64,000 nt of DNA from Comamonadaceae bacterium (GCA_043777675.1 JAYWHR010000065.1:9992-73991); one strand, 5' to 3'. Shown: positions 28,768-60,158, counted from the stretch's first letter. The notes: a model not told the origin generated them from the letters alone. Translations and numbers: made by a program.

Positions 28768-28800
28768 GGTTTGGAGGGATGAAGGATAGAAATTCAATAC

Positions 28801-28970: not shown

Positions 28971-28988
28971 GCTGTTTGTATTTAGAAT

Positions 28989-35308: not shown

Positions 35309-35387
35309 AGACCTCATTTGCTCACTGATTAGCGCTGCAATCTGTGGCCTAATAGTGGGTTGTATCAATTTTTCTTGGAATTCAATC

Positions 35388-35555
35388 ATGGCCGACAAAA
35401 TCAGAACCGAAGCAGATCGCAAACGCAGCCCTAAGCCTGTATTGCCTAATGGCGTATCTATGCCTGTGAGCCGTGGCCAAAAGGTGAGCTTAGAGCGCGG
35501 CAGCTCCACTAGAAATAAGAAAAACGCGGGCAAGCGTCCGAAAAAAGGCGGTTAA
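35388..35555 (+). CDS. Small basic hypothetical protein (55 aa)
   Basis: ATG-started ORF filling the spoT-FDH gap; 16 of 55 residues are K/R; weak RBS. Confidence 0.4.
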   Translation: MADKIRTEADRKRSPKPVLPNGVSMPVSRGQKVSLERGSSTRNKKNAGKRPKKGG

Positions 35556-35636: not shown

Positions 35637-38453
35637 TCACGCTTTTTGTATTTTTACAGCGCAGTATTTGAATTCTGGGATTTTTCCAAACGGATCAAGC
35701 GCTGAATTGGTGAGCAAATTGGCAGCCGATTCTGCATAGGCGAAGGGAATGAACACCGTATTTACGGGCGTTCCTTCGTCGATGCGCACTTGAAGCACGA
35801 TGCTACCGCGCCGTGAGGCGACCCGCAAACTCTCCCCGGCTTTGACGCTTGCTTGCGTTGCTGTAGCGGCGCTCATCGATACTGTAGCTTCTGGCTCAAG
35901 AGCATCTAGCATGCTGGCGCGGCGCGTCATGGAGCCGGTATGCCAGTGCTCTAGCTGGCGGCCCGTGATGAGCACAACCGGATATTCATCGTCCGGCAAT
36001 TCGTTGGCGGGTATAAAGCCAGCGGGTACGAGTTTGATGCGGCCATCCTTGGTGGGTACGGCGTCTTGAAATACGATAGGCTGGCCTGGATCATCTTCTG
36101 TGAGGCACGGGTAGGTGACTGAGCCTTCTTTTTCAAGCCGCGCCCAAGTGATGCCAGCAATCGCAGTGTGCATCGCTTGACGCATTTCTTCATACACGGC
36201 ACTGGCACCGCTATCGTCGCTCTCGCCACTGCCTTGCGATTCATCATCAGCGCCCGCGTAATCCCAATGCAGATCTAAGCGTTTGGCAAGCTGCTGAATG
36301 ATCCACAAATCATGCTTGGCAGCGCCCGGCAGCGGCAAAGCTTGGCGGCCGAGCTGCACCATGCGATCTGTGTTGCTCACCGTGCCGGTTTTTTCTGGCC
36401 AAGCGCTGGCGGGAAGCACCACATCGGCAAGCCACGCGGTCTCGGTCATGAAAATATCTTGTACGACGAGATGCTCCAAGCTTTCCAGCGCGTGGCGTGC
36501 ATGCGACAGGTCAGGGTCGCTCATCGCGGGGTTTTCGCCCATGATGTACATGCCGCGAATCTTGTGAGGATCTGTCTCTGGCGCGAGGATCTTGTGCATG
36601 ATCTCCACCACGGTGTAGCCGGGTTTGTTATCAAGCTTGGTATCCCAGAAATTTTCAAACCACGCATGTGCCTCTTGGTTGTCCACGCGCTGGTAGTTGG
36701 GCAGCATCATCGGAATCAAACCCGCATCGCTTGCGCCCTGCACATTGTTTTGCCCACGCAGCGGATGCAAGCCTGTGCCGGGGCGGCCAATCTGCCCAGT
36801 GATTGTGGCGAGAGCAATCAAGCAGCGCGCATTGTCTGTGCCGTGCACATGCTGGCTCACGCCCATACCCCAGAGAATCATCGCGCTCTTGGCGGTGGCA
36901 AACGTGGTGGCGACTTCGCGGATCGTTGCCGCATCAATCCCGCAAGCTTGGCTTACAGCTTCCGGTGAAAAATTCGCGACCTGCGCTTTAAGCGCTTCAA
37001 AATTGGTAGCACGCTGCGCAATGAAATCGTCGGCCACCAGCCCTTTTTCTATGATGGTGTAGAGCATGGCGTTGAGCAGCAACACATCTGTATCTGGCTT
37101 GAATTGCAGGCTCTTCCAAGCGTGGCGTGCGATGTCGGTGCGGCGTGGGTCAGCCAAAATAATTTTGCTGCCTTCTTTCGCCGAATTCTTCATCCACGTA
37201 GCGGCCACGGGATGATTCGAGGTGGGATTGCTACCGATGATGAGGATCACTTCGCTGTGCGCCACGTCGTTCACCTGATTGCTTACCGCGCCTGAGCCTA
37301 CGCCTTCCAGCAGCGCGGCAACCGATGATGCATGGCACAAGCGCGTGCAGTGATCCACGTTGTTACTGCCAAATCCCGTGCGCACAAGCTTTTGGAAAAG
37401 ATAGGCTTCTTCGTTGCTGCCTTTGGCACTACCAAAGCCGGCAAGTGACTTTGCACCATATTGATCACGCAAACTCTTGAGCTTACCGCCCGCAAGATTC
37501 AAAGCTTCTTCCCAAGTCGCCTCACGAAATACCTCGCGCCAATCCGCATCATGCGGCAAGATGCTTTTCGGCACGCCAGGCTTGCGAATCAAAGGCTGCG
37601 TCAAGCGCCCATCGTGATGCACGTAATCAAAACCAAAGCGCCCTTTCACGCAGAGCCGCGAATCATTCGCCGGTCCTTTGCGGCCGTCCACGCTGACGAT
37701 TTTGTCGTCTTTGACGTTGTAAGTGATCAAACAGCCCACGCCGCAATACGGGCAGACCGAATCAATTTTTTTATCAACCTTCTGGGAGCCAACTTGCGTC
37801 TTTGGCATCAGCGCTCCGGTTGGGCAGGCCTGCACGCATTCGCCGCAGCCCACGCAACTGCTCTCGCCCATCGCATCAAACTGATCAAACACAATGCTTG
37901 AGTGGCTGCCGCGCTGTGCATAGCCAATCACATCGTTGACCTGAACTTCGCGGCAAGCGCGCACACAGCGCGTGCATTGAATGCAAGCATCCAGATTCAC
38001 CGCCATCGCAGGGTGAGAAAGATCGGCTTTAGGTTGCTCGCGCCGCAGCGCTCTCAATTCGGGGCGCACTTGAACATCCATCACGCTCGCCCACTCGCTC
38101 AGTTCGCCATGCGGCTGCGTTGCATCGTCTTCGTGCCATTTGTAGCCCTGCTCTGGCAAATCTGCGAGCAGCATCTCCAGCACCATTTTTTGGCTTTTTA
38201 CAGCGCGCTCGCTAGTCGCTTTGACCTGCATACCCTCAACGGGCGCGCGGCAGCAGCTCGGCGCGAGCACGCGCTCGCCCTCAACTTCCACCACACAAGC
38301 CCGGCAATTGCCATCGGCTCGCATCCCTTCTTTGAAGCACAGATGTGGAATCTCCACGCCGCTGCGCTTAGCCGCTTGCAAAATGCTCTCGCCGGGAATC
38401 GCCTGCACGGCTTTGCCATCGAGCTCAAAACTGATCACTTCGCGGGCGCTCAT
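35637..38453 (-). CDS. fdhF: NAD-dependent formate dehydrogenase, alpha (molybdopterin) subunit
   Basis: 2Fe-2S (CRAC..E..LAPSC), 2x[4Fe-4S], CPYCGVGC, DHCTRLCH (Cys ligand, no Sec), LRGQNNVQGASD. Confidence 0.9.
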   Translation of the reverse strand: MSAREVISFELDGKAVQAIPGESILQAAKRSGVEIPHLCFKEGMRADGNCRACVVEVEGERVLAPSCCRAPVEGMQVKATSERAVKSQKMVLEMLLADLPEQGYKWHEDDATQPHGELSEWASVMDVQVRPELRALRREQPKADLSHPAMAVNLDACIQCTRCVRACREVQVNDVIGYAQRGSHSSIVFDQFDAMGESSCVGCGECVQACPTGALMPKTQVGSQKVDKKIDSVCPYCGVGCLITYNVKDDKIVSVDGRKGPANDSRLCVKGRFGFDYVHHDGRLTQPLIRKPGVPKSILPHDADWREVFREATWEEALNLAGGKLKSLRDQYGAKSLAGFGSAKGSNEEAYLFQKLVRTGFGSNNVDHCTRLCHASSVAALLEGVGSGAVSNQVNDVAHSEVILIIGSNPTSNHPVAATWMKNSAKEGSKIILADPRRTDIARHAWKSLQFKPDTDVLLLNAMLYTIIEKGLVADDFIAQRATNFEALKAQVANFSPEAVSQACGIDAATIREVATTFATAKSAMILWGMGVSQHVHGTDNARCLIALATITGQIGRPGTGLHPLRGQNNVQGASDAGLIPMMLPNYQRVDNQEAHAWFENFWDTKLDNKPGYTVVEIMHKILAPETDPHKIRGMYIMGENPAMSDPDLSHARHALESLEHLVVQDIFMTETAWLADVVLPASAWPEKTGTVSNTDRMVQLGRQALPLPGAAKHDLWIIQQLAKRLDLHWDYAGADDESQGSGESDDSGASAVYEEMRQAMHTAIAGITWARLEKEGSVTYPCLTEDDPGQPIVFQDAVPTKDGRIKLVPAGFIPANELPDDEYPVVLITGRQLEHWHTGSMTRRASMLDALEPEATVSMSAATATQASVKAGESLRVASRRGSIVLQVRIDEGTPVNTVFIPFAYAESAANLLTNSALDPFGKIPEFKYCAVKIQKA

Positions 38454-40195
38454 TGCACAACTCCAACGCTAATCTCATGCGAGAAGTATTTCAAAACGCT
38501 CAGCATCGGGTTCGGCGCAGCCTGCCCCAAGCCGCAAATGCTGGCATCCACCATCACAGTGCTTAAATCATTCAGCGTGGCTTGATCCCACACTTTCGCC
38601 TCCATCAGCTTCACAGATTTCTCCGTGCCCACGCGGCAAGGCGTGCATTGCCCGCAGCTCTCATGCGCAAAAAATTTCATCATATTGAGCGCGCCATTTC
38701 GCGCTGAATCCTGCTGACTCAACACGATCACCGCCGCGCTGCCAATGAAGCAACCATAGGGCTGCAGAGTATCAAAATCGAGTGGCACATTGGCCAGCGC
38801 TGCCGGCAAAATGCCGCCGCTCGCACCGCCCGGCAAGTAGGCATACAGCTCATGGCCATCCGCCATACCGCCACAGAATTCATCAATCAATTCGCGCACG
38901 CTGATGCCAGCAGGAGCCAACTTCACGCCCGGCTGCTTCACACGCCCGCTCACGCTAAAACTGCGCAGCCCCTTTCGGCCATTCCTGCCATGCGAAGCAA
39001 ACCATTCACCGCCTTTTTCCACAATCTCGCGCACCCAATACAGCGTTTCAAAGTTGTGCTGCAGCGTCGGCCGGCCAAACAAGCCCACTTGCGCAATATA
39101 CGGCGGCCGCATGCGCGGCTCACCGCGTTTGCCCTCAATGCTCTCAATCATCGCGCTCTCTTCGCCGCAGATATACGCACCCGCACCGCGCCGCAGTTCA
39201 ATTGTGGGCAGCTTGCATGGCGGATTCATTTGTAGCTTGGCGATTTCTGCGCTCAGCATCTCGCGCAGCTCATGGTATTCATCGCGCAGATAAATATAAA
39301 TCGCGTCAATGCCCACCACCTGCGCGGCAATCAACATGCCTTCTAAAAACCGATGCGGATCACGCTCCAGATACCAACGGTCTTTGAATGTGCCCGGTTC
39401 GCCCTCGTCAAGATTAATAGCCATGAGCTTAGGACTTGGTTGATCACGAACGATCCGCCACTTGCGCCCCGCCGGAAAACCCGCACCACCCAAACCGCGC
39501 AAGCCTGCATGCTCCAGCGCCGCAATCACACTCTCAGCATCGCGCGAACCATCCGCCACAGAACGCAGCAGCGCGTAGCCACCAGCAGCTTGGTAGTTAT
39601 TTAACGCTATTAAATCAATAGCGCTCTGCGCATGTTCTATGCCGGCTAGATGCTGTTTTTGCCCTAAAAACTGCTGAAAAATGTCTATGGAGGCATGCCC
39701 GAAATTCCGCTGCCCCACGGCCACCGCAGGCGCTTGCTCGCAGCGCCCAATGCAAGGCACCGGCTCAACTTTCACATCCGCTTGCAGCAGCGCGGGCAGC
39801 TCAGCCAGCAGCTCATTCGAGCCAGCCATCTCGCAGCTCAGTCCATTGCACACTCGAATCCGTAAACTTGGCGCGGCTTCGGCATCCCGCAAAATTTCAA
39901 AGTGATGATAAAAAGAAGCGACCTCAAACACTTCGGCCTGCGATAGTTTCATCAGATCCGCCAGTGCAGCGATATGCCGTTCAAACACCGCGCCATACGC
40001 GTCGTTCAAAGCATGCAAATATTCAATCAGCAAATCCCGCCTGAACAACTGCTCTGATGTGCCTGGCCACACTTTCTGCATCAGCGCACGCACCTGTTCG
40101 CGCGCCTGCGGCAATACCTGCCGCCCCTTCAATTGCGAGCGCACTGGATGCGTCTTGTGAACCGTGATTGGTTTGACTTCAACAATAGTTTTCAT
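38450..40195 (-). CDS. Formate dehydrogenase beta subunit (NuoE-like + NuoF-like fusion)
   Basis: EVASFY, CNGLSC, CIGRC; GLRGLGGAGF, DEGEPG.FKDR, GAGAYICGEE, HESCGQCTPCR, CGLG. Confidence 0.88.
   Translation of the reverse strand: MKTIVEVKPITVHKTHPVRSQLKGRQVLPQAREQVRALMQKVWPGTSEQLFRRDLLIEYLHALNDAYGAVFERHIAALADLMKLSQAEVFEVASFYHHFEILRDAEAAPSLRIRVCNGLSCEMAGSNELLAELPALLQADVKVEPVPCIGRCEQAPAVAVGQRNFGHASIDIFQQFLGQKQHLAGIEHAQSAIDLIALNNYQAAGGYALLRSVADGSRDAESVIAALEHAGLRGLGGAGFPAGRKWRIVRDQPSPKLMAINLDEGEPGTFKDRWYLERDPHRFLEGMLIAAQVVGIDAIYIYLRDEYHELREMLSAEIAKLQMNPPCKLPTIELRRGAGAYICGEESAMIESIEGKRGEPRMRPPYIAQVGLFGRPTLQHNFETLYWVREIVEKGGEWFASHGRNGRKGLRSFSVSGRVKQPGVKLAPAGISVRELIDEFCGGMADGHELYAYLPGGASGGILPAALANVPLDFDTLQPYGCFIGSAAVIVLSQQDSARNGALNMMKFFAHESCGQCTPCRVGTEKSVKLMEAKVWDQATLNDLSTVMVDASICGLGQAAPNPMLSVLKYFSHEISVGVVQ
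39606..39648 (-). repeat. 43-bp repeat, copy 5 (in frame in FDH beta)
   Basis: Reverse complement tagccggcatagaacatgcgcagagcgctattgatttaatagc; encodes LAGIEHAQSAIDLIA. Confidence 0.9.
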
Positions 40196-41052
40196 ACAGC
40201 GCAGCGCAAGATTTCGGCGTGATGACGAAGATGGCTTTCCATGAAACTGCTCACGAAATAATAACCGTGGTCATAGCTCGCATGTTGGCGAAATTGCAAG
40301 GCTTGGCCCACTTCTCGGCAGGCTGCTTCAAACAAATGCGGATGCAATTGCTCGGCCAAAAATTGATCACTCAAACCCTGATCAATCAAGATGCTGGTGG
40401 GCAGCAATGCCTTGCCACGCGCTAGCAGCAACTGAGTTGCGTCATGCTGGCGCCAAATTGCTTCATCATCGCCCAAATACCCTGCAAATGCCTTTCGCCC
40501 CCACGGGCATTGGCTGGGCGCGCAGATGGGTGCGAAGGCAGAGACTGACCGAAATGCATGAGGGTGGCGCAAGGCCAAGCTCAAAGCCCCATGCCCGCCC
40601 ATCGAGTGCCCCATGATGCCAAGGCGTTGCGTATCTATCGGCAAGAGTTGCCCAATGTGCGCCAGCAGCTCTTGCATTAAATAACTCTCCATGCGCCAAT
40701 GCTTTGCCCAAGGCTGCTGCGTGGCATCCAGATAAAAACCAGCCGCCACGCCAAAATCCCAGCTCTCGGATTGCCCAAGCACATCCGTGTTGCGCGGGCT
40801 GGTGTCTGGCGCGATCAATGCAATCCCCAGCTCACTAGCTACTCGCTGCGCTCCAGCTTTGATAGCAAAGGTTTCTTGCGTACAAGTCAGCCCCGCCAAA
40901 TACATCACGGCGGGCACTGTAGTTTGACTAGCTGCAGGCGGCAAATACACCGCAAAACGCATCGGCAGACCAATCTGGCTTGAGGCATGCTCGTAAAAAG
41001 ACTGCCGGCCACCAAAACAGGCATGCTCGCTCAACAACTGAAAATCTTTCAT
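40192..41052 (-). CDS. fghA: S-formylglutathione hydrolase
   Basis: LAGLTC, APDTSPR, GHSMGGHGAL, DQG..DQFL..QL, YDHGYYF. Confidence 0.93.
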   Translation of the reverse strand: MKDFQLLSEHACFGGRQSFYEHASSQIGLPMRFAVYLPPAASQTTVPAVMYLAGLTCTQETFAIKAGAQRVASELGIALIAPDTSPRNTDVLGQSESWDFGVAAGFYLDATQQPWAKHWRMESYLMQELLAHIGQLLPIDTQRLGIMGHSMGGHGALSLALRHPHAFRSVSAFAPICAPSQCPWGRKAFAGYLGDDEAIWRQHDATQLLLARGKALLPTSILIDQGLSDQFLAEQLHPHLFEAACREVGQALQFRQHASYDHGYYFVSSFMESHLRHHAEILRCAV

Positions 41053-41054
41053 GA

Positions 41055-43432
<2,378 letters not shown>

Positions 43433-43441
43433 AAATGGCGA

Positions 43442-44755
43442 TCAGTAAGTTTCTAAGTGCAAACGCGCTTCTTTTTTCAGGGCGCTGCCAATCGTATCCC
43501 AGCTGAATCCTGATTTTTCAGCGATGTCTTTGAGCGCAAGGATCACGCCCTCTTCCATTGCTTTCAAGCCACAAACATAGAAGTAAGCATTGGGGTCTTT
43601 CAGCAAGACGGCGAGATCGACGGCGCGGTCGCGCAGGGCATCTTGCACATAGCGTTTGGGTTTGCCGGATTCGCGGGAATAGCAAAATTCAATATCGATG
43701 AAATCTTTGGGCAGCTGCTGCAGCGGGCCGAAATACGGGAGCTCTGCTTGGGAGCGTGCGCCAAAGAAGAGCCAGAGTTTCCCACCGTCAAATTTGCTTT
43801 CACTGGCCGTATTTTTTGCGCGCATGCGCCTGCGCCACTCCGTCATGGCGCGCATCGGGGCGCTGCCTGTGCCGGTGCAGATCATCACGATGTGGCTCTT
43901 GGGGTGATTGGGCATGAGGAAGCTACTCCCGAAAGGGCCGATGACTTCAACCTGATCTCCCACCTTCAAATCGCACATGAAGTTGCTCGCCACGCCGCGC
44001 ACGGCTTTGCCACTGTGATCTTCGAGCACACGCTTGATCGTGAGCGAGAGATTGTTGTAACCCGCACGCTCGCCGCTGCGTGCGCTGGCAATCGAATACT
44101 GCCGAGCATGATGCGGCTTGCCGCGCGCATCCACGCCCGGCGGCACGATGCCGATGCTCTGCCCCTCGAGCACGGGGAACGGCATGCTGCCAAAATCGAG
44201 CACGATGTGGTGCGTGTCGTAATCACTGCCTGCCGTCTTACCGACTTCGGTGACGCGCACATTGCCTGTGACGCTGGCTGTGATGCTTTTTTCAGCCGCT
44301 TTCGCGCCATAAAGATTCGTGTACGCAAGGGCGGCAGACCATGGCGGCAGCGTTGCGCCATATTGTTGGTTGCTGATAGACGCTATGGTTTCGATAGCTG
44401 TCTGCGCAGGTTCTATGCCGGCTAATGGCCTATTTTCTTCTGAAACGGCACTGGAAATTTCCTCCTCAGCCAAAGCAGCTTCGGGCAACTCCTCTGGCAA
44501 ATCATCCCAAGTCAGCTGCTCTTCGACTGAATACGCTTTGACTTTCAGCATGCTGCGCCAATTGTCAATTGAGCCCGTAGGACAAGGCGAAATACAAGCC
44601 ATGCAAGAGTTGCACTTCTCGGCATCCACCACGTAGTTTCGATCATCATGCGTGATCGCCCCCACGGGGCAAGTGGCTTCGCAAGTGTTACAGCGAATAC
44701 AAATGACCGGATCGATCAGATGCTGTTTGATGATGGATGTTTCGTTAGCGCCCAT
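43442..44755 (-). CDS. boxA: Benzoyl-CoA epoxidase reductase component A
   Basis: KQHLIDP..CIRCNTCE..CP, second ferredoxin motif, RQYSIAS, CTGTGSAP, VCGL, ETY end. Confidence 0.93.
   Translation of the reverse strand: MGANETSIIKQHLIDPVICIRCNTCEATCPVGAITHDDRNYVVDAEKCNSCMACISPCPTGSIDNWRSMLKVKAYSVEEQLTWDDLPEELPEAALAEEEISSAVSEENRPLAGIEPAQTAIETIASISNQQYGATLPPWSAALAYTNLYGAKAAEKSITASVTGNVRVTEVGKTAGSDYDTHHIVLDFGSMPFPVLEGQSIGIVPPGVDARGKPHHARQYSIASARSGERAGYNNLSLTIKRVLEDHSGKAVRGVASNFMCDLKVGDQVEVIGPFGSSFLMPNHPKSHIVMICTGTGSAPMRAMTEWRRRMRAKNTASESKFDGGKLWLFFGARSQAELPYFGPLQQLPKDFIDIEFCYSRESGKPKRYVQDALRDRAVDLAVLLKDPNAYFYVCGLKAMEEGVILALKDIAEKSGFSWDTIGSALKKEARLHLETY
44382..44424 (-). repeat. 43-bp repeat, copy 6 (in frame in boxA)
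   Basis: Reverse complement tagccggcatagaacctgcgcagacagctatcgaaaccatagc; encodes LAGIEPAQTAIETIA. Confidence 0.88.
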
Positions 44756-44784
44756 GAGTTTTAAGTCCTTGAAGACATGAACAC

Positions 44785-44930
44785 CGGACGCAGAAGACGC
44801 AGAGGTTACGCAGAAGAAATACCAAAGAGAAAAAAAGAAACGGTGTCTTCAAATCAAACCCATTCAATTTTAAATCCCGTCTTCTGTCTTTTTTGCGTCT
44901 TTTGCGTAACCTTCGCGTCTTCTGCGTCCG
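44785..44930. repeat. Long palindromic element, copy B (boxB-boxA gap)
   Basis: Same 32-bp inverted arms as copy A, different interior. Confidence 0.9.
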
Positions 44931-44959
44931 GTATTGAATTCGTACTATTTCCTATTGAA

Positions 44960-46384
44960 TTAGTTAAAACGAATGTAATCGAAATCAACCACTTGCTTGT
45001 TGATACCCATTGCAGGTGGCGCAATCCAGTTGGCAAATTTTCCTGGCTCGACCACGCGGCCCATCAAGCTCGCTACAAACATGCGGTCTTCAGCCGTTGG
45101 CAACCATTCAGCTGATTTTGCAGCCCATTCCACCTCGCTCAACACACGGCCATCCGGCGAGACTTTTGCGCCAGCCAATGCGCCGATATTGCGGTTGAAA
45201 GCTTTGTGCGGTGTAGTGAGTTTGAACGGGATGCCCGCTTTCTCAATCACTTTGTTCCATCGGCCCACGCCTGCGACTGAATCCTTGATGTAGTCATCGC
45301 GCAGTACTTCGTTGAGTGCATTGAGCATCGGCACTTCTTTTTCAACCAACTGGCCACCGACCACTTGCAGCACTTTATAGCTCTGGCCGCGCAGCTGATG
45401 ATCATCCGTGCGCTTGCCTTCTTCGTAGCGGCCTTTGATGCCGGTGCTGTAGAAGGTGGCGGCATTGGATGATTCGTCTGCACCAAACAAATCGATTGTG
45501 ACGGAGAAGTGAAAGTTCAAATAGCGCTGCAATGTAGGTAGATCAATTACACCTGCTGCGCGAAGCTTTTTAGAATCATCCGTTTTCAGCTCATTCATCA
45601 TCTGGCAGGTGCGCTGGATCACGCGACTGATGCCGCTCTCACCCACAAACATGTGATGCGCTTCTTCGGTCAGCATGAATTTGCTGGTGCGCGCCAATGG
45701 CTCAAATGCGCTTTCTGCAAGAGCGCAGAGCTGGAATTTGCCATCACGATCGGTGAAATACGTGAACATAAAGAAGCTCAGCCAATCCGGCGTGGCTTCG
45801 TTGAAGGCTTGCAAGATGCGCGGTGTATCGGCATCGCCGCTGCGGCGCTCAAGCAGCGCTTCGGCTTCTTCACGGCCATCGCGGCCAAAATGCTTGTGCA
45901 GCAAATAGACCATCGCCCACAAATGGCGGCCTTCTTCAACGTTGATCTGATATAGGTTGCGCAAGTCATACATGGAGGGCGCTGTTAAGCCCAAGTGGCG
46001 CTGCTGCTCCACAGATGCTGGCTCGGTATCGCCTTGCGTGACGATGATGCGACGCAGATTGGCGCGGTATTCGCCGGGCACATCGTTCCACACGTCTTGC
46101 CCCATGTGATCACCAAAATGAATTTTACGGTCTTGCTGCGCAGGGTTCAAGAAAATGCCCCAGCGGTAATCGCGCATCTTCACATGCCCAAACTGCGCCC
46201 AGCCCGCTGGATCCACGCTCACTGCGGTGCGCAAATACACATCAGACATTTCCGAGCCCACGGGGCCAATTTCATCCCACCAGTTGATGAAATTAGGCTG
46301 CCAACCTTCTAGCGCGCGCTGCAAGGTGCGGTCTTCGCTCAAGTTGACATTGTTAGGAATTTTCTCGCTGTAGTTAATGCTCAT
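44960..46384 (-). CDS. boxB: Benzoyl-CoA 2,3-epoxidase component B (diiron)
   Basis: INYSEKIPNNV, QGDTEPASVEQ, EEGRH, DRDGK, EEAHH. Confidence 0.95.
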   Translation of the reverse strand: MSINYSEKIPNNVNLSEDRTLQRALEGWQPNFINWWDEIGPVGSEMSDVYLRTAVSVDPAGWAQFGHVKMRDYRWGIFLNPAQQDRKIHFGDHMGQDVWNDVPGEYRANLRRIIVTQGDTEPASVEQQRHLGLTAPSMYDLRNLYQINVEEGRHLWAMVYLLHKHFGRDGREEAEALLERRSGDADTPRILQAFNEATPDWLSFFMFTYFTDRDGKFQLCALAESAFEPLARTSKFMLTEEAHHMFVGESGISRVIQRTCQMMNELKTDDSKKLRAAGVIDLPTLQRYLNFHFSVTIDLFGADESSNAATFYSTGIKGRYEEGKRTDDHQLRGQSYKVLQVVGGQLVEKEVPMLNALNEVLRDDYIKDSVAGVGRWNKVIEKAGIPFKLTTPHKAFNRNIGALAGAKVSPDGRVLSEVEWAAKSAEWLPTAEDRMFVASLMGRVVEPGKFANWIAPPAMGINKQVVDFDYIRFN

Positions 46385-46485
46385 GAATTGCTCGATTTAA
46401 AAACAACGGTGGAGTTAGTTCGGTTACAGCAAGCCACCTGCCTTGCTGCACAACGAGATTTTTTAACTTCTAAATACATGAATAC

Positions 46486-46618
46486 CGGCCGCAGAAGACG
46501 CAAAGGTTACGCAGAAGGGATACCAAAAAATACCAAGACTGATGTTTCAAAAAAATCCTCTTTCTTGGATTTTCTTTTTTGTATTTTTTCTGCGTAACCT
46601 CTGCGTCTTCTGCGTCCG
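46486..46618. repeat. Long palindromic element, copy C (boxC-boxB gap)
   Basis: Same 32-bp inverted arms, shortest interior. Confidence 0.9.
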
Positions 46619-46637
46619 GCTGTTTGTATTCAAAACC

Positions 46638-48296
46638 TCAAACACGATTCCAATCGAAAACCGCCTTATCGCCCTTGCCATAAACCTTCAAAGCCCCCTT
46701 CTCTCCCACGGCGTTAGGCCTCTGAAAGATCCAGTTTTGCCAAGCAGTCAAGCGGCCGAAGACGCGGGTGGCCATGGTCTCTACGCCGTTGAAGCGCAGA
46801 TTGGCTTCCAAGCCTGTGAGTGCATCTGGGCTCATGGCCATGCGCTCTTCTAAAGCGATGCGCACTTCGTCTGCCCAATCAATATCATCTGGATTGGCGG
46901 TCACCAAGCCCAGTGCAAAGGCTGCATCTGCATCCAGCGGCTGGCCTGCCACAGCGCGCACGGCATCGAGCGCAGGCGCTTCGCTGTAGAAGCGGCGCTG
47001 CAAACGGCTTTCGCGCGTTGCCATCGGGTAGAGGCCAAAATTCACATCGCTCACAGTGATCTTCGGCGCTTTGGCTTCATAATCTGGCAAAGCGAGGTGA
47101 TATGCGCGGTCACAAGCCAAGCTCAGCTCTAAGAAAGTGCCTGCAAAGCACGAGCCGGGTTCGATGAAAGCGAAGAGGCTACGGGAAGATACATCAATGC
47201 GGCTGAAGGTGCGGCGTAGCATTCCGATGGTCTCGCGCACGAACCAATGATCCTTATTGGCCATCAGCACAGCATCCATCGCGAGCACTTTAGCGGCGTC
47301 GCCTTCGGTTTTGAAAATCCAAGTGCCAATGTCCAGCTCATTGGTGCGCATTTGCAAAATGGCATCATCCAGCTCACGCGCCAGCACGAAGGGATACCAA
47401 TTCGATGCTGCATTTTCGATAGCGGCTACGGTAGATTCCACGCCGGCTGTTGGCGCTTTAACTATAAAAGTAGCAAGGCGCTTAGCGCGATCAATCTCTA
47501 CCGTCACGTTGCCATAGCGCAATGCATCAGCTTCAATCGTGCAATTCAATGGTGTGAGTGCCACGCCTTTTGCGCCAGCAGGTCGGTCGCTCTTCTCAGC
47601 CAATTCTGCTGCTCGCTTTTGCACAGCCTCGTTAAATTGCGCGGGCTTCACAGCCTGATCCACCAAGCGCCATTCCACAGCTTTCTTGCCGCGCACGCCT
47701 TCAACACTGGTGCAAAAAATATCAGCCAAATCATGGCGTACTTTGCGTTTGTCTGTCACGCGGGTGAGGCCGCCGGTGCCGGGCAACACGCCGAGCAGTG
47801 GCACTTCAGGCAAGCTCACAGCGCTGGCGCGGTCGTCTACCAAAATGATTTCATCGCAAGCCAGCGCCACTTCATAGCCGCCACCTGCGCATGCCCCGTT
47901 CACAGCAGCAATGAATTTGAGGCCGCTGTATTCGGAAGAATCTTCCAAACCATTGCGCGTCTCGTTGGTGAATTTGCAGAAATTCACTTTCCATGCGTGG
48001 CTCGATACGCCAAGCATGAAAATATTGGCGCCCGAGCAAAACACTTTTTCCTTTGCGCTGGTGAGCACCACGGTGCGCACTTCAGGATGCTCGAAGCGGA
48101 TGCGATTAATTGCATCGTTCAACTCAATGTCGACACCGAGGTCATAGCTGTTGAGTTTGAGCTTATAGCCGGGGCGAAGGCCAGCGTTTTCATCGAAGTC
48201 GGCTTTGAGCGTGGCCACTGCGCCATTGAACTCCAATTTCCAATGTTTGTATTGGCTAGGCTCGGTGCGGTAGTTAACGCGAAGTTCGTTGCTCAT
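46638..48296 (-). CDS. boxC: 2,3-epoxybenzoyl-CoA dihydrolase
   Basis: KLNSYDLGVDIEL, CKFTNETRN, LPEVPLLGVLPGTGG, GRLTAWQNWIFQRPNA. Confidence 0.95.
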   Translation of the reverse strand: MSNELRVNYRTEPSQYKHWKLEFNGAVATLKADFDENAGLRPGYKLKLNSYDLGVDIELNDAINRIRFEHPEVRTVVLTSAKEKVFCSGANIFMLGVSSHAWKVNFCKFTNETRNGLEDSSEYSGLKFIAAVNGACAGGGYEVALACDEIILVDDRASAVSLPEVPLLGVLPGTGGLTRVTDKRKVRHDLADIFCTSVEGVRGKKAVEWRLVDQAVKPAQFNEAVQKRAAELAEKSDRPAGAKGVALTPLNCTIEADALRYGNVTVEIDRAKRLATFIVKAPTAGVESTVAAIENAASNWYPFVLARELDDAILQMRTNELDIGTWIFKTEGDAAKVLAMDAVLMANKDHWFVRETIGMLRRTFSRIDVSSRSLFAFIEPGSCFAGTFLELSLACDRAYHLALPDYEAKAPKITVSDVNFGLYPMATRESRLQRRFYSEAPALDAVRAVAGQPLDADAAFALGLVTANPDDIDWADEVRIALEERMAMSPDALTGLEANLRFNGVETMATRVFGRLTAWQNWIFQRPNAVGEKGALKVYGKGDKAVFDWNRV

Positions 48297-48319
48297 GAGT
48301 TGTCTCCTCGGTTTAGTTT

Positions 48320-48362
48320 ATGAATTATATTGCATATTTTGAAAACATGCAATATTTTTCAT
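48320..48362. promoter_or_regulatory. Candidate BoxR operator upstream of boxC
   Basis: Palindrome atgaaTTATATTGCATattttgaaaacATGCAATATTTttcat holding TGAA-N6-TGCA and TGCA-N6-TTCA. BzdR/BoxR are known to bind TGCA-containing operators. Confidence 0.6.
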
Positions 48363-48363
48363 G

Positions 48364-49296
48364 TTATTGAATTTCAACCACGGGCAGGAGCAATTTTTGA
48401 AGCAAGCCAAAGCTCTCATTCAAGCCTTGCGCACTCGTGTTGAGCGTGAAATCAGCTTTGGAATAGAAGGCAGTGCGGCCTGCCAGAATGCTCTTCAAAT
48501 CATCCAACGCCTCTTTGCTGGCCGCCATCGGGCGCATGTCGCCCTGCGCTTGCACGCGCTGCAAATGCTCTTGCGGCTCGGCTTGAAGCCAAACGCTGGT
48601 GCAGTGCGTGAGCACGGTATTGAATGTGCTCACATCGCTCACCAGCCCGCCCGGCGTAGCGATCACGCATTGCGCATGCTGGGCAATCAGCGCATCGAGT
48701 GCGCGGCGCTCATAGCGGCGATATGCCGTCACGCCATACAGCGCCTGAATCTCCGCCACGGAAGTGCCTGCCAACTTCTCAATCTCTCTGCTCATCTCAA
48801 AAAACGGGTATTTCAACGTCTGCGCAAGCATCTTGCCCAGCGTGGATTTACCTGCCCCGCGCAGGCCGATCAAAGCGATTCTCTGAGACCGTTTTTGGCC
48901 AGTAGCCGGCATAGAATCTGCGCGAGGCGCTCCTAAATATGTAGCAATGTTCAACCGAAGGTGTTTCAGTTGCACCTCATCCGCGTTTTCCAACAGTTTG
49001 CGCAGCATCAGCCATTCGGGGTTGCTTGTGGTCAAGTCGCCATGCAGCTCGGCCAGCGGGCATTCCAGCGCATCGGCCACCTGCTGCAAGATCAAAATCG
49101 AGGCATTGCCCACGCCATATTCCAAATTGGCCAAATGCCGCTCAGACACATCAGCAGCGGCGGCCAGCGCCTTGCGCGTTAGCCCCCGGCGCGAGCGCTG
49201 GCTGCGCACGCGCTCGCCCAGAGCTACCAAAAACGGGTTTTTGGCCTCTGGCTCGTCAGCTTCAGCAGCATCAACATGCAATATATTGCTTGACAT
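48364..49296 (-). CDS. boxR: BoxR/BzdR-type regulator (XRE HTH + shikimate-kinase-like domain)
   Basis: GLTRKALA..ADVSERHLANLE.G.GN; IALIGLRGAGKSTLG; position in box cluster. Confidence 0.87.
   Translation of the reverse strand: MSSNILHVDAAEADEPEAKNPFLVALGERVRSQRSRRGLTRKALAAAADVSERHLANLEYGVGNASILILQQVADALECPLAELHGDLTTSNPEWLMLRKLLENADEVQLKHLRLNIATYLGAPRADSMPATGQKRSQRIALIGLRGAGKSTLGKMLAQTLKYPFFEMSREIEKLAGTSVAEIQALYGVTAYRRYERRALDALIAQHAQCVIATPGGLVSDVSTFNTVLTHCTSVWLQAEPQEHLQRVQAQGDMRPMAASKEALDDLKSILAGRTAFYSKADFTLNTSAQGLNESFGLLQKLLLPVVEIQ
48903..48945 (+). repeat. 43-bp repeat, copy 7 (in frame in boxR)
   Basis: tagccggcatagaatctgcgcgaggcgctcctaaatatgtagc; encodes ATYLGAPRADSMPAT on the minus strand. 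Confidence 0.88.
49277..49290. promoter_or_regulatory. Possible second BoxR site (TGCA-N6-TGCT) at the boxR/bclA divergence
   Basis: tgcaatatattgct overlapping boxR codons 3-7. Confidence 0.3.
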
Positions 49297-49383
49297 GGGG
49301 TGATTTCAGGATTTATAGTTCAACTGGAATTATTTTGCATCAGAACAGATAACCCGTCAAACCAAGGGCTTGAGGAGACAACC

Positions 49384-50979
49384 ATGCAACAGCACACACC
49401 AGCGCCCCCGGCGCAGTTCAATTTCGCCGCCGATTTGATCGCCGCCAACGCGGCCCGCCCCAATAAAGTCGCTCTCATCGACGATGCTCTCTCGCTCACC
49501 TATGGCCAGCTTGCAGAGCAAATCAAAAGTACCGCTGCCGGCCTGCTAAACGCTGGCTTGCGCCGTGAAGAGCGCGTCTTGCTCCTGATGCACGATTGCA
49601 GCGATTGGGTCGTCTCCTTCCTCGGCTGCTTGTATGCGGGCGTGGTTCCCGTGGCGGTTAACACGCTGCTCACACCGGAAGACTACGCTTATATGCTGCA
49701 ACACAGCCGCGCCCAAGCGGCCTTGGTCTCTGGTGCGCTCGTGCCTGCACTGCAAGGCGGCATGCAACTCGCTTCGCAAAATGGCGGGCATGAAATCAAG
49801 GCAATTTATGTTTCCCGTGCAACTGCCGATCTGCCAGTGAGCTACAGGGCTTGGAGCACGTTGCTTGAAGCTGCGCCCTTGAGCAAGCCTTGCCCCACAT
49901 ACGCCGATGAAGCCGCCTTCTGGCTCTATTCTTCAGGCTCCACAGGCCGCCCCAAAGGCACTGTTCACACCCATGCCAATGCGTTTTACACCGCAGAGTT
50001 GTATGGCAAAGGCGTTTTGCAAATCACCGAGAAGGATGTGTGCTTCTCCGCCGCCAAGCTCTTCTTTGCTTATGGCTTAGGTAACGGCCTGAGCTTCCCG
50101 CTCGCCGTGGGCGCCACCGTGATTTTGATGGCCGAGCGGCCCACGCCGGATGCCGTCTTTAAACGCTGGAAAGGGCAGCTAGCCGGCATGAAATCTATCA
50201 AGCCTACTATCTTTTTCGGAGCACCCACAGGTTTCGCTGGCATGCTTGCTGCGCCCAATCTCCCAGCTAAAAACGAAGTGGCGTTGCGCATGTGCTCCAG
50301 CGCCGGCGAAGCCCTGCCCGCAGACATTGGCCAACGGTTTGAAAAACACTTCGGTGTACAAATCATCGATGGCATCGGCTCCACCGAAATGCTACATATC
50401 TTTTTATCCAACCAACCCGGCAAAGTCCGTTACGGCACCACGGGATGGGCTGTGCCCGGATATCAGGTTGAACTCAGAGGAGAGGGCGGTGGCGCTGTGC
50501 CCGACGGCGAGCCCGGTGAGCTCTACATCCAAGGCCCCACGGCTGCTCTCATGTATTGGCAAAACAGAGAAAAATCTCGCAACACTTTTCAAGGCGAATG
50601 GACGAAAAGCGGCGACAAATACGTCAAAAACTCTGACGGCTCATACACCTACTCAGGCCGCAGCGACGACATGCTCAAGGTCAGCGGTATCTACGTCTCT
50701 CCCTTCGAGGTGGAAGCCACACTCGTGCAACACAGCGCCGTGTTAGAGGCCGCCGTCATCGGCAAAGAAGATCACGAGGGGCTTACAAAAACCAAAGCCT
50801 TCGTCGTCTTAAAAGACGGGCATTCGGCCACCGAAGAAGAACTCAAAGCCTTCGTCAAAGGCCTTCTCGCGCCCTACAAATATCCGCGCTACATTGAGTT
50901 TGTGCGCGAATTGCCCAAGACGGCGACGGGGAAGATTCAGCGGTTTAAATTGCGAGATTTGGAAGCTTCGCGTCATTGA
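49384..50979 (+). CDS. bclA: Benzoate-CoA ligase
   Basis: FNFA.DL, LYSSGSTGRPKG, KLFFAYGLGN, DGIGSTE.LHIF, KTATGKIQRF. Confidence 0.9.
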   Translation: MQQHTPAPPAQFNFAADLIAANAARPNKVALIDDALSLTYGQLAEQIKSTAAGLLNAGLRREERVLLLMHDCSDWVVSFLGCLYAGVVPVAVNTLLTPEDYAYMLQHSRAQAALVSGALVPALQGGMQLASQNGGHEIKAIYVSRATADLPVSYRAWSTLLEAAPLSKPCPTYADEAAFWLYSSGSTGRPKGTVHTHANAFYTAELYGKGVLQITEKDVCFSAAKLFFAYGLGNGLSFPLAVGATVILMAERPTPDAVFKRWKGQLAGMKSIKPTIFFGAPTGFAGMLAAPNLPAKNEVALRMCSSAGEALPADIGQRFEKHFGVQIIDGIGSTEMLHIFLSNQPGKVRYGTTGWAVPGYQVELRGEGGGAVPDGEPGELYIQGPTAALMYWQNREKSRNTFQGEWTKSGDKYVKNSDGSYTYSGRSDDMLKVSGIYVSPFEVEATLVQHSAVLEAAVIGKEDHEGLTKTKAFVVLKDGHSATEEELKAFVKGLLAPYKYPRYIEFVRELPKTATGKIQRFKLRDLEASRH

Positions 50980-52426: not shown

Positions 52427-53215
52427 ATGACCCTCTCGCTTAAAAACAAAACCGCCCTCATCACAGGCTCCACCAGTGGCATCGGCCTAGGCATTGCCAT
52501 TGAGCTTGCCAAGCAAGGCGCGAATATTGTGCTCAACGGTTTCGGAGACGCGGCAGCCATTGAAGCCGCTCGCTCGCAGGTAGCCGCGCAAGGCGTACGC
52601 GTGGCCTACCACGGGGCAGATATGAGCAAGCCCGCTGAGATCGAGCAGCTCATCGCATTTGCCGCCCGAGAATTCGGCATGGTCGATATCTTGGTGAACA
52701 ACGCAGGCATTCAGCATGTGAGCCCGGTGGAGAATTTCCCTGTTGAAAAGTGGGATGCTATTCTGGCCATCAATTTATCCAGCGCCTTCCACACCACACG
52801 CTTGGCCATGCCCGGGATGCGCGCCAAAAATTGGGGCCGCATCATCAACATCGCCTCAGCGCATGGCTTGGTGGCCTCCCAAGACAAATCCGCCTACGTC
52901 GCTGCCAAACATGGCCTCGTGGGTTTTACCAAATCCATCGCACTAGAAACAGCCACCACCGGCATCACAATCAACGCCATCTGCCCAGGCTGGGTGCTCA
53001 CGCCCTTGGTGCAAAAGCAAATCGACAATCGCGCTGAGCGTGAAGGCATCAGCGTGGATCAGGCCAGCAAAGATCTGCTGGGCGAGAAGCAGCCCTCGCT
53101 CCAATTCACCACACCCCAGCAGCTCGGCGAACTTGCCGTCTTCCTCTGCCAAGAGGCAGCAGCTAACGTGCGTGGTCAGGCTTGGGCAGTGGATGGCGGG
53201 TGGACAGCGCAGTGA
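52427..53215 (+). CDS. bdhA: D-3-hydroxybutyrate dehydrogenase
   Basis: TGSTSGIG, NNAGIQHV, SAHGLVAS..KSAYVAAKHG, WVLTPLVQKQI. Confidence 0.9.
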   Translation: MTLSLKNKTALITGSTSGIGLGIAIELAKQGANIVLNGFGDAAAIEAARSQVAAQGVRVAYHGADMSKPAEIEQLIAFAAREFGMVDILVNNAGIQHVSPVENFPVEKWDAILAINLSSAFHTTRLAMPGMRAKNWGRIINIASAHGLVASQDKSAYVAAKHGLVGFTKSIALETATTGITINAICPGWVLTPLVQKQIDNRAEREGISVDQASKDLLGEKQPSLQFTTPQQLGELAVFLCQEAAANVRGQAWAVDGGWTAQ

Positions 53216-53341: not shown

Positions 53342-54430
53342 TCAAGTATCTTTGCTAATCTTGATAGAAGGAAACTTCGATGAAAAATCTTTGGCTTTCG
53401 CAGCAATCTTGATCGCCACTTGTCGCGCGACAGCTTTGTAGATTGTGGCAATCTCCCCATCTGGATCGGTCACCATCGTGGGGCGGCCGCTGTCTGCATT
53501 GACGCGGATGCTCATATTAAGTGGCAACGCGCCGAGGTAATCGATGCCCTTTTCCGCCGCATAGCGTTTGCCGCCATCTTCGCCAAAGATATGCTCGGTG
53601 TGGCCGCATTTTTCGCAGACGTGGACTGCCATGTTCTCCACCACGCCCAGAATCGGCACACCCACTTTTTCGAACATTGCCACGCCTTTTTTCGCATCCA
53701 GCAAGGCAATGTCTTGCGGTGTGGTGACGATCACAGCGCCTGTCATGGGCACGCGCTGGCTGAGCGTAAGTTGAATATCGCCGGTGCCAGGGGGCATATC
53801 GACGATGAGGTAATCCAAATCTTTCCAATTGGTTTGGCGAATCAGTTGCTCTAGCGCCTGAGTGGCCATGGGGCCGCGCCAGATCATGGCTTCGTCTTGG
53901 TTGACAAGGAAGCCTATGCTCATCACCTGCACGCCGTAGTTTTCCATGGGCTCCATGGTCTTGCCGTCTTCACTCTCTGGGCGGCCTTCAATGCCCATCA
54001 TCATGGGCTGGCTCGGGCCATAAATATCGGCATCCAAAATGCCCACGCGCGCGCCCTCGGCGGCCAGCGCGAGCGCGAGATTCACCGTGGTGGTGCTCTT
54101 GCCCACGCCGCCTTTGCCCGAAGCCACGGCTACGATGTTTTTTACCGTAGGCATGAGCGCCACACCGCGCTGAGCCGCATGCGCGACGATTTTGACTGTG
54201 ACATTGCAAGAGACGTTGTCCACGCCCGCCACGCTTTTGGCGGCTGCGATCAGCGCTTTGCGAAATGCCGGAATCTGGCTCTTGGCCGGGTAGCCCAGCT
54301 CCACATCAAAGGCCACATCGCCCTCGGTGACGGTGAGGTTTTTGATGCATTTGCTAGAGACAAAATCTTTACCGGTATTGGTGTCGATCACGCTTTTTAG
54401 CGCGTTGAGAATCTGTTCGTTGGTGGCCAT
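53342..54430 (-). CDS. apbC: Fe-S cluster carrier ApbC/Mrp
   Basis: SGKGGVGKST, DADIYGPS, WRGPM, DMPPGTGD, TTPQ, ENM..H.CEKCG. Confidence 0.95.
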   Translation of the reverse strand: MATNEQILNALKSVIDTNTGKDFVSSKCIKNLTVTEGDVAFDVELGYPAKSQIPAFRKALIAAAKSVAGVDNVSCNVTVKIVAHAAQRGVALMPTVKNIVAVASGKGGVGKSTTTVNLALALAAEGARVGILDADIYGPSQPMMMGIEGRPESEDGKTMEPMENYGVQVMSIGFLVNQDEAMIWRGPMATQALEQLIRQTNWKDLDYLIVDMPPGTGDIQLTLSQRVPMTGAVIVTTPQDIALLDAKKGVAMFEKVGVPILGVVENMAVHVCEKCGHTEHIFGEDGGKRYAAEKGIDYLGALPLNMSIRVNADSGRPTMVTDPDGEIATIYKAVARQVAIKIAAKAKDFSSKFPSIKISKDT

Positions 54431-54529: not shown

Positions 54530-56605
54530 ATGTCAGCCAAACGCCAACTTTTCGTCACCACCGCCCTACCGTATGCCAACGGCAAATTCCACATCGGCCA
54601 CATCATGGAATATATTCAGGCTGATATTTGGGTGCGTTTCCAGCGGATGCAGGGGCATGACGTAAATTTTGTGTGTGCAGACGATGCACATGGCGCGCCG
54701 ATCATGATCGCAGCTGAAAAGGCTGGTAAAACACCGCGCCAGTTTGTGGACGACATTGCCGCTGGCCGCAAAGAATACTTAGATGGCTTTCACATCAGCT
54801 TCGACAACTGGAGCCACACCGACAGCGAAGAAAACCACGAACTGTGCCAAACCATTTATCAAGACCTAGACAAAATGGGCCTGATCGGCAAGAAAAGCGT
54901 AGAGCAGTTTTTCGATCCAGAGAAAAACATGTTTTTGCCAGACCGCTTCATCAAAGGCGAATGCCCCAAATGCGGCACCAAAGATCAGTATGGCGACAAC
55001 TGCGAAAACTGCGGCGCAGTGTATGCCCCCACCGATCTGAAAAATCCGTATTCCGCGCTCAGCGGCACCACGCCAATTCTCAAAAGCAGCGACCACTATT
55101 TCTTCAATTTGTCTGACTCTCGCTGCGTGGAATATCTAGAGAACTGGACGCAAGACGGCAAACTACAACCCGAAGTAGCCAACAAAGTCAAAGAATGGTT
55201 TTCAGTACGCACCAACCAAGACGGCAGTACGTCTGAGGGTTTAGCTGACTGGGACATCTCCCGCGACGCGCCCTATTTCGGCATCGAGATTCCCGGCGCG
55301 CCTGGTAAATATTTCTATGTGTGGTTTGACGCACCGATTGGTTATTTGGCATCGCTCAAAAATCTGCTCAATGAACGTGGTCAGGATTTTGATGCTTACA
55401 TCGCACCTAGTTCAGCAGTTGAGCAATACCACTTCATCGGCAAAGACATCGTTACGTTTCACACGCTCTTCTGGCCAGCAGTATTGAAGTTCAGCGGCCG
55501 CAAGACGCCGAATAACGTGTTTGTGCACGGCTTCCTCACCGTCAACAACGGTGAAAAAATGAGCAAGAGCCGTGGCACGGGTCTCGATCCTTTGAAATAC
55601 CTCGGCTTGAGTATGAACCCAGAATGGCTGCGCTATTACTTGGCCACCAAGCTGTCTGCACGCAATGAAGATATTGATTTCAACGCAGAAGATTTCATGC
55701 TGCGGGTGAATAGTGATTTGATTGGCAAGTATGTAAATATTGCGAGTCGTGCTGCTAAGTTTTTACCCAACGGCGCGCTGGCAGCATTTACGGATGATTC
55801 GCCGCACAAGTCGGGTGATCTACTCAAAAACGTTCGCGGCTTTTACGAAGAGCGTGAATATGGCAAAGCGCTGCGCGAGATCATGACGTTTGCTGACAGC
55901 GTGAATTCGCGATTCGATGGCGCTGCACCTTGGAAGCTCGTTAAAGAAGGCAAGGCAGAGCTTGCTGCAGAGAAAAGCTCGGAAGCCATTCAAATGTTTC
56001 GCATCATGAGCGCATGCTTGAAGCCGGTGATGCCTAGCGTTGTTGCGGCCGTTGAAAAATTTCTGCAATGTGAATCGCTCAGCTTTGAAAACGCAAGCCA
56101 GCCCTTGCCCATCGGCCACCGCGTGGGCAATTATGAGCACCTCATGCAACGCGTCACCTCAGAGCAACTTTCAAGCCTTTTTGAGCCTCCAGCCGGCATA
56201 GAATCTGCGCAAGTCGCTATTGAATCAGTAGCATCATCATTGCCCGGTGGCGAAGCGATTGCACAGAGCATCACGATTGACGACTTCGCCAAAATCGATC
56301 TGCGCATCGCCAAAATCGTTAACTGCGAAGCCGTGGAAGGCTCAACCAAGCTGCTGCGCTTGACGCTGGAAGTGGGCGAAGGCAAAACGCGGAACGTCTT
56401 CAGTGGCATCGCCAGCATGTACAAACCCGAGCAGCTCGTGGGCAAGCTGACGGTGATGGTGGCCAATCTCGCGCCGCGCAAGATGAAATTCGGCATCAGC
56501 GAAGGCATGGTGCTCGCAGGCAGCCATGCCGATGAAAAAGCCACGCCCGGTATTTACATCCTAGAGCCCTTCCCCGGCGCGCAACCAGGCATGCGCGTGC
56601 GTTAA
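54530..56605 (+). CDS. metG: Methionine-tRNA ligase
   Basis: ALPYANG..HIGH, Zn knuckle [25 protein letters not shown]-terminal tRNA-binding domain. Confidence 0.97.
56190..56232 (+). repeat. 43-bp repeat, copy 9 (in frame in metG)
   Basis: cagccggcatagaatctgcgcaagtcgctattgaatcagtagc; encodes [15 protein letters not shown]. Confidence 0.88.
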
Positions 56606-56662: not shown

Positions 56663-56705
56663 ATTTTGTACAATATTGCATTCTGAATGCATTTTTGTAC
56701 AAAAT
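56663..56705. promoter_or_regulatory. Palindrome overlapping the ATPase start, candidate operator
   Basis: ATTTTGTACAA-tat-TGCATTC-t-GAATGCA-ttt-TTGTACAAAAT. Confidence 0.5.
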
Positions 56706-60146: not shown

Positions 60147-60158
60147 ATACCGAACTGC

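Follow-up and report, generated by a model that had tools for sequence, protein, structure and literature searches.

A formate dehydrogenase locus downstream of the box genes in Comamonadaceae, with a variable frmA-fghA insert at the junction

We analyzed a stretch of 64,000 nt from a Comamonadaceae bacterium (GCA_043777675.1 JAYWHR010000065.1:9992-73991), here called the window. Positions are counted within this stretch, and the 3.66-Mb genome carrying it is designated G000. Between positions 35637 and 49296 the minus strand holds nine co-directional open reading frames (ORFs): boxR, boxC, boxB and boxA of the aerobic benzoyl-CoA (box) pathway, pcaF, the formaldehyde-oxidation genes frmA and fghA, and fdhB and fdhA for an NAD-dependent formate dehydrogenase (FDH). 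Comparison with related genomes revealed that FDH genes following the box genes are a genus-wide trait, and that the frmA-fghA insert varies among species at a single junction, between pcaF and fdhB. The box-FDH linkage is already published as a prediction and is common in the family. New are its extent across a second large family, with the FDH at a different position (after boxCBA and not on the bclA side), and the history of the locus with the insertion of frmA-fghA. On balance we favor a BoxR-controlled transcript from boxC to fdhA that would be induced by benzoyl-CoA, with the FDH oxidizing the formate released by BoxC.

Identity and arrangement of the genes

The ORFs were identified by NCBIfam equivalog scores against the curated cut-offs, and domains were assigned with Pfam.

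boxR, 48364..49296, minus strand: box-gene repressor with an XRE-HTH and a shikimate-kinase-like part (NF006015, 411.3 bits, cut-off 204; Pfam HTH_3, SKI)
boxC, 46638..48296, minus strand: 2,3-epoxybenzoyl-CoA dihydrolase, formate-releasing (TIGR03222, 944.8 bits, cut-off 712.3)
boxB, 44960..46384, minus strand: benzoyl-CoA 2,3-epoxidase, oxygenase subunit (TIGR03225, 893.6 bits, cut-off 499.1)
boxA, 43442..44755, minus strand: benzoyl-CoA epoxidase, reductase subunit (TIGR03224, 711.8 bits, cut-off 459.2)
pcaF, 42230..43432, minus strand: 3-oxoadipyl-CoA thiolase, final pathway step (TIGR02430, 702.7 bits, cut-off 597; NF006551, 735.8 bits, cut-off 605)
frmA, 41055..42164, minus strand: S-(hydroxymethyl)glutathione dehydrogenase, a class III alcohol dehydrogenase (TIGR02818, 733.2 bits, cut-off 543.95)
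fghA, 40192..41052, minus strand: S-formylglutathione hydrolase (TIGR02821, 431.7 bits, cut-off 281.7)
fdhB, 38450..40195, minus strand: Fdh1B type, fusion of a NuoE-like 2Fe-2S part and a NuoF-like FMN/NAD/4Fe-4S part (Pfam 2Fe-2S_thioredx, Complex1_51K, SLBB, NADH_4Fe-4S)
fdhA, 35637..38453, minus strand: Fdh1A type, catalytic subunit of NAD-dependent FDH with Mo/W and bis-pyranopterin guanine dinucleotide (bis-PGD) (TIGR01591, 693.9 bits, cut-off 666.25)

These scores, together with the Pfam and PDB matches of FdhB, confirmed all gene identities and the gene order of a preliminary description made from this DNA alone. Its spacings of 65, +2, -4 and -4 nt were likewise reproduced exactly from the ORF coordinates: frmA follows pcaF after 65 nt and fghA follows frmA after 2 nt, and the stop codons of fghA and fdhB overlap the next start by 4 nt each. 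pcaF lies 9 nt behind boxA. That description did not list the gaps of 253 nt between boxC and boxB and of 204 nt between boxB and boxA. Translation of frmA starts at an ATG at 42164, with a GAGAGG ribosome-binding site ahead of it.

The junctions are not an assembly artefact, because contigs from at least five independent samples encode an identical FghA protein and have the gene order pcaF-frmA-fghA-fdhB around it. The order also recurred in four other species, and a binning artefact was ruled out as well. frmA, fghA and fdhBA are each present in a single copy in G000 (tblastn gave one genome match each for frmA and fghA), and the genome search yielded neither a second NAD-dependent FDH nor a second frmA. 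The next-best FdhA match, on contig C37, was rejected as a second FDH; it looks like an assimilatory nitrate reductase, with a BFD-like extension at its C-terminus.

FdhA aligned with PDB 7VW6_A and 7E5Z_A at 1195.8 bits (residues 5-935 covered) and FdhB with 7E5Z_B at 676.3 bits (residues 18-572 covered). Because both subunits match the tungsten-dependent NAD-FDH of Methylorubrum extorquens over their full length, the enzyme is, by sequence, of the Fdh1AB type. As in Fdh1AB of M. extorquens AM1 (PDB 7E5Z, 7VW6), there are two subunits, the alpha subunit combining Fe-S domains (N-terminal 2Fe-2S/4Fe-4S) with bis-PGD and the beta subunit being a NuoE/NuoF fusion. Whereas the M. extorquens enzyme contains tungsten and serves methylotrophy, the window FDH would contain either Mo or W, and sits within an aromatic-degradation operon. 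fdhA has no in-frame stop and is therefore of the cysteine type and not of the selenocysteine type.

Variable content of the pcaF-fdhB junction among genus members

Regions around boxC were taken from genomes of the same genus and searched with the window proteins. FDH genes lay 3' of the box genes in all assessable genus members. In contrast to this constant order, three states were found between pcaF and fdhB.

frmA-fghA: G000, G004, G005, G007 and G010
co-directional LysR gene: G014 and G008, both genomes without any FrmA
empty: G009, the pcaF stop and the fdhB start overlapping as TGATG

In G009 the frmA-fghA pair is located elsewhere, among unrelated housekeeping genes. In a maximum-likelihood tree of shared proteins G009 branched first within the genus, the remainder being poorly resolved. 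The junction can be seen as a natural experiment in operon growth: sister species fill it with a regulator gene or with two detoxification genes, or leave it empty, so that the regulatory consequences of the three states would be directly comparable among them.

Two further observations concern the neighboring boxA-pcaF junction. In G008 two genes are inserted between boxA and pcaF (L027, G008:C115, 2231-3124), one for a 215-aa Fic-family adenylyltransferase with the motif HAFPDGNGRS and one, upstream of it, for a 78-aa partner. The metagenome-assembled genome (MAG) G004 holds two versions of the boxB-boxA-pcaF stretch (contigs C133 and C123; L029, L034), one in which boxA and pcaF are separated by a 1.1-kb insert, and one running into frmA-fghA-fdhBA. 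The two versions are probably strain heterogeneity in the bin.

The box-FDH adjacency in the family

A family survey was carried out on 200 sampled genera of this Comamonadaceae-like family, with a threshold of E <= 1e-120 for Fdh1B orthologues. Fdh1B was detected in 110 and BoxC in 115 of the 200 genera. The FDH locus of the family has a conserved left anchor, formed in the window by two genes.

apbC, 53342..54430, minus strand: with metG, the conserved left anchor of the family FDH locus (NF008669, 412.1 bits)
metG, 54530-56605: adjoins apbC in the left anchor

The other flank of the array is formed by spoT. In at least 9 of the 84 sampled genera having both, the box cluster was located between apbC and fdhB and read in the same direction as fdhBA. 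By chance, two loci placed at random in a 4-Mb genome would come within 10 kb of each other in only about 0.5% of cases, far below the observed share. The arrangement metG-apbC / bclA(-boxD) <> boxR-boxCBA-fdhBA occurs in G136, G180, G160 and G210, and Limnohabitans sp. Bal53 has the full metG-apbC-bclA<>boxR-boxCBA-fdhBA block. On the short G222 contig only boxCBA-fdhBA is visible. Further variants are boxCBA-lysR-fdhBA in G096, boxCBA and fdhBA separated by 3 to 7 kb in G118 and G050, and boxCBA-pcaF-fdhBA in a Hydrogenophaga MAG. BoxC and Fdh1B also co-occur: among 201 genomes, 85 have both, 31 box only, 26 FDH only and 59 neither (odds ratio 6.2, Fisher p = 2e-9, not corrected for phylogeny and genome size).

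The situation is different for the formaldehyde genes. Whereas the preliminary description had joined the box, formaldehyde and FDH genes into one linkage, only the box-FDH part recurs, in all assessable genus members and at least eight other genera. frmA-fghA is no general partner of box: beside box genes it was found in five species of the window's genus only, in none of 80 other species (a survey made with a BoxC profile) and in none of 28 other genera. The presence of FghA across the 200 genera was associated neither with box (odds ratio 0.75) nor with FDH (0.64).

In the 28 other genera, the gene immediately upstream of fdhB was boxA in five, a LysR orthologue in six (46-54% identical to the LysR protein of G014) and apbC in three. 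LysR-regulated soluble FDH operons are known, an example being FdsR-fdsGBACD of Cupriavidus necator. Like this operon, fdhBA has a LysR gene directly upstream in G014, G008, G096 and the six other genera, while the window genome lacks that gene. The best NCBIfam match of the sister-species LysR is CynR, below the cut-off, and orthology to FdsR is not established. Judged from these neighborhoods, the FDH is a resident locus of the family with the ancestral order apbC-(lysR)-fdhBA.

The same chromosomal anchor has received a formaldehyde pair elsewhere. In G151 (L164, G151:C14, 6634-17193) the genes apbC-frmA-fghA-lysR-MFS-fdhB-fdhA lie on one strand without box genes, and FrmA and FghA are 64% and 67% identical to the window proteins. 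As far as gene order can tell, G151 acquired the formaldehyde pair at its FDH locus independently. In the window, too, frmA-fghA was probably recruited to the FDH locus and not to the box pathway itself.

Published precedent

Although the preliminary description knew of no earlier account of the linkage, FdhBA (COG1894/COG3383) had been predicted as a BoxR-regulon member that oxidizes BoxC-derived formate in Azoarcus/Aromatoleum sp. EbN1 (Suvorova & Gelfand 2019, PMC6449761). There, the EbN1 FDH genes are so near the box genes that co-transcription was proposed, and the same neighborhood was noted in Azoarcus sp. BH72 (PMC6449761). For the EbN1 box divergon with its adjacent fdhBA, that paper cites Gescher et al. 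2002 and 2006, and formate release by BoxC is cited in it as established biochemistry. The window resembles EbN1 in having a BoxR repressor with a TGCA-palindrome operator, boxCBA divergent from bclA, and a two-gene FDH with NuoF-like and molybdopterin subunits close to the box genes. In EbN1, however, the FDH is found on the bclA/boxD side, behind the genes for a lactonase and a thioesterase, while in the window it follows boxCBA-pcaF. Unlike EbN1, the window cluster has no boxD and no lactonase gene, and frmA-fghA is intercalated. Our literature search found no paper linking box genes with frmA or fghA; bioRxiv 10.64898/2026.06.26.734754, on the box pathway, formate and formaldehyde, was irrelevant to such a link.

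The box pathway sheds one carbon per ring as formate, and the fate of this formate and the recovery of its reducing power are rarely shown. In the present comparison box operons repeatedly end in genes for an Fdh1AB-type FDH across a large betaproteobacterial family, and a literature prediction for one genome becomes a readily testable pattern at the family level. This is a tidy genomic observation and no new mechanism; the family pattern is useful, and the variable junction is neat, if unsurprising.

Signals for transcription and regulation

The spacer between boxR and boxC (48297..48363, minus strand, 67 nt) contains the inverted repeat AAAATATTGCAT-N13-ATGCAATATAATTCAT with TGCA cores. Embedded in it is the boxC promoter, with a -35 box TTGCAT and a -10 box TATAAT 17 nt apart, and this promoter/operator motif was conserved in seven of seven genus members compared. 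TGCA-containing palindromes are the published type of BoxR/BzdR site (PMC6449761), and the repeat is predicted to be a BoxR-type operator. The locus thus has the features of a box cluster: boxA, boxB and boxC are adjacent, a putative TGCA-palindrome operator is present, and boxR is divergent from the following gene.

bclA, 49300..50979, plus strand: benzoate-CoA ligase, divergent from boxR (TIGR02262, 752.6 bits, cut-off 375)

The true start of bclA is probably near 49384, with a promoter TTGACA-18-TATAGT at 49290-49319 (11/12 positions matched).

The spacer ahead of frmA is different.

pcaF-frmA spacer, 42165..42229, minus strand: 65 nt, with the GAGAGG ribosome-binding site only

A consensus scan gave no promoter match here, and no BoxR-like operator was seen. 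The spacer is no more structured than shuffled sequence (z = -0.03), and terminator-like matches in the region are not enriched (17 vs 19.7 in shuffles), which bears out the earlier statement that no terminator is evident. Among the five frm-bearing species, the corresponding spacers (60-75 nt) share no conserved sequence or motif. From pcaF to fdhA the genes have the layout of a single unit, on one strand, with short or overlapping junctions and no terminator. Since frmA is preceded by no visible promoter, operator or terminator, read-through from the conserved, putatively BoxR-controlled boxC promoter into frmA appears likely.

A dedicated regulator for frmA was looked for and rejected: there is no FrmR, no orthologue in G000 of the LysR protein encoded upstream of fdhB in sister species, and no conserved spacer motif. 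In this respect, too, the preliminary description, which had seen no frmR, held up. frmR is absent from locus and genome, and the sole CsoR/RcnR/FrmR-family gene of G000 lies on another contig in a sulfur-related context. The window pair resembles frmRAB of Escherichia coli and flhA-fghA of Paracoccus in that FrmA and FghA are equivalogs and the genes are adjacent and nearly overlapping. Unlike those units, it has no FrmR or other dedicated regulator in locus or genome, and is joined downstream to FDH genes and upstream to a catabolic operon.

As for the CsoR-family gene itself (C47:277576-279486), its neighbors are genes for YeeE/YedE-like membrane proteins and, on the other side, for a persulfide-dioxygenase-like protein of 383 aa with a metallo-beta-lactamase fold. 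By this context the unit resembles the persulfide-sensing CstR/SqrR type rather than FrmR.

Proposed origin and function of the array

In the history that we propose, the ancestral locus would have been metG / apbC-(lysR)-fdhBA. The box divergon (bclA <> boxR-boxCBA) would then have arrived between apbC and fdhB, directed into fdhBA. In the window's genus pcaF would have been added 3' of boxA, and in part of the genus frmA-fghA would have taken the pcaF-fdhB junction, where sisters hold a LysR gene or nothing. In G000 the former fdhB promoter region and the LysR regulator are gone. Benzoyl-CoA would free BoxR from the operator at the boxC promoter, and one long transcript would run from boxC to fdhA. 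BoxC would give one formate per ring, Fdh1AB would oxidize it to CO2 with recovery of NADH, and FrmA/FghA would deliver formaldehyde-derived formate to the same enzyme. The biochemical reasoning of the preliminary description was correct, in that BoxC releases formate, FrmA and FghA make formate, and FDH oxidizes it.

We hold such a transcript, under BoxR and with Fdh1AB acting on BoxC formate, to be moderately probable. Several points weigh against it. The consensus scan that found nothing before frmA also missed the obvious boxC promoter, and frmA may have a promoter of its own, weak or not of the sigma-70 type, in the 65-nt spacer or at the 3' end of pcaF. Control by benzoyl-CoA only would leave the sole formaldehyde and formate enzymes uninduced on other substrates, which is physiologically odd. 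An additional promoter is argued for because the only copies of frmA, fghA and fdhBA would otherwise need benzoate for their induction. The genus counts for box-fdhBA are not independent, because these genera share the metG-apbC context and may stem from one ancestral event. Finally, two very stable hairpin elements in the gaps between box genes could attenuate or process a long transcript.

palindromic MITE/REP-like element, 46485..46619, minus strand: fills the boxC/boxB gap, with 32-nt inverted terminal arms
palindromic element, second copy, 44784..44931, minus strand: fills the boxB/boxA gap

For the whole boxC/boxB gap the folding energy is -101.6 kcal/mol (z = -10.4). Lacking a U-tract, the elements are not classical terminators. 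They are about 135-170 nt long with 32-nt inverted ends, CCGGACGCAGAAGACGCAAAGGTTACGCAGAA, and occur four times in the window (28800-28971, 44784-44931, 46485-46619 and 60158-60321). In the G000 genome 174 arms, corresponding to about 87 copies, were counted, and the element is missing from the same box gaps in G010.

One alternative is that frmA-fghA-fdhBA is a separate C1-oxidation unit with its own constitutive or formaldehyde/formate-responsive promoter at the 3' end of pcaF or in the spacer, and that its position reflects genomic history. Box clusters would have settled beside a resident FDH locus, hence the adjacency. We consider this possible, yet clearly less probable than the long transcript. 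It accords with an FDH locus that pre-exists at apbC with its own LysR gene in many genera, with frmA-fghA-lysR-MFS-fdhBA standing without box in G151, and with the LysR gene kept between box and fdhBA in G014, G008 and G096. The absence of any association between FghA and box fits as well, and with single copies of frmA, fghA and fdhBA in G000, benzoate-independent induction would be physiologically sensible. On the other hand, the spacer has no promoter-like site, operator or conserved sequence, no terminator follows pcaF, and the LysR gene and old fdhB upstream region are missing from G000. The TGATG overlap of pcaF and fdhB in G009 further indicates that FDH can be integral to the box operon in this genus.

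A related reading would be a regulatory capture: with the LysR gene and the fdhB promoter lost, the sole formaldehyde-detoxification genes and the sole NAD-FDH would have come under BoxR; in another version, FrmA/FghA would help to handle the aldehyde made by BoxC in a genus lacking BoxD. We regard this as unlikely. If true, C1 detoxification would be wired to aromatic catabolism, with for example methoxylated or formaldehyde-releasing aromatics as natural substrates.

The adjacency might also be functionally meaningless, the result of neutral insertions at a permissive intergenic site beside apbC. The pcaF-fdhB junction is indeed a hot spot, with three contents in one genus, and other insertions in the operon are the palindromic elements of G000 and the Fic toxin pair of G008. 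However, in each of nine genera the box genes share a strand with fdhBA and point into it, the LysR gene was lost more than once, and the coupling is tight or overlapping. Moreover, BoxC and Fdh1B co-occur phyletically, an independent association in a different order exists in Aromatoleum (PMC6449761), and product and substrate are stoichiometrically related, formate being made by BoxC. Neutral adjacency is accordingly given little credence.

BoxD and the source of formaldehyde

No BoxD orthologue was found in G000 or in the seven other genus members searched, the best matches being 26-27% identical. BoxD is not a universal feature of the cluster, because many other box loci have no boxD nearby either. 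In this genus (G000, G004-G010, G014) the BoxC product would have to be oxidized by an enzyme other than BoxD.

The missing BoxD raises the idea that FrmA and FghA replace it: FrmA would oxidize the glutathione thiohemiacetal of 3,4-dehydroadipyl-CoA semialdehyde to a thioester, which FghA would hydrolyze. We rejected this idea as highly improbable. G014 and G008 have box genes and lack both BoxD and FrmA, so the pair is no genus-wide replacement. In addition, FrmA and FghA score as plain formaldehyde-enzyme equivalogs, and the G009 pair stands in its unrelated housekeeping context.

The preliminary description had considered O-demethylation of methoxy-aromatics as a source of formaldehyde. 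This found no support, since none of the three VanA_C-type Rieske oxygenases in G000 matched a vanillate demethylase model. A PQQ methanol dehydrogenase was not found in G000 either, and one GFA-domain protein is encoded elsewhere in the genome.

Further genes of the window

A family III CoA-transferase gene (PF02515; 51252-52364, plus strand) lies 3' of bclA. Its best NCBIfam matches were succinate-glutarate and mesaconate transferases, all below the cut-off, and it is kept at the same position genus-wide with 84-94% identity. Beyond it lies a gene for a 3-hydroxybutyrate-dehydrogenase-like short-chain dehydrogenase/reductase (SDR; 52427-53215, plus strand), for which the genus loci searched gave no qualifying match at this position. 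Neither gene adjoins the other box clusters surveyed, and the two are possibly genus-specific pathway steps.

Farther away, a myo-inositol oxygenase homologue (58002-58829, plus strand; PF05153, 359.6 bits) lies beside a DUF4143/AAA_14 ATPase gene (56695-57951), with no inositol genes seen nearby. Between spoT and the end of fdhA, at about 35340-35510 on the plus strand, there is a 55-aa, very basic ORF (MADKIRTEADRKRSPKP...KRPKKGG). It has no family match and is a gene call in an independent assembly (L169).

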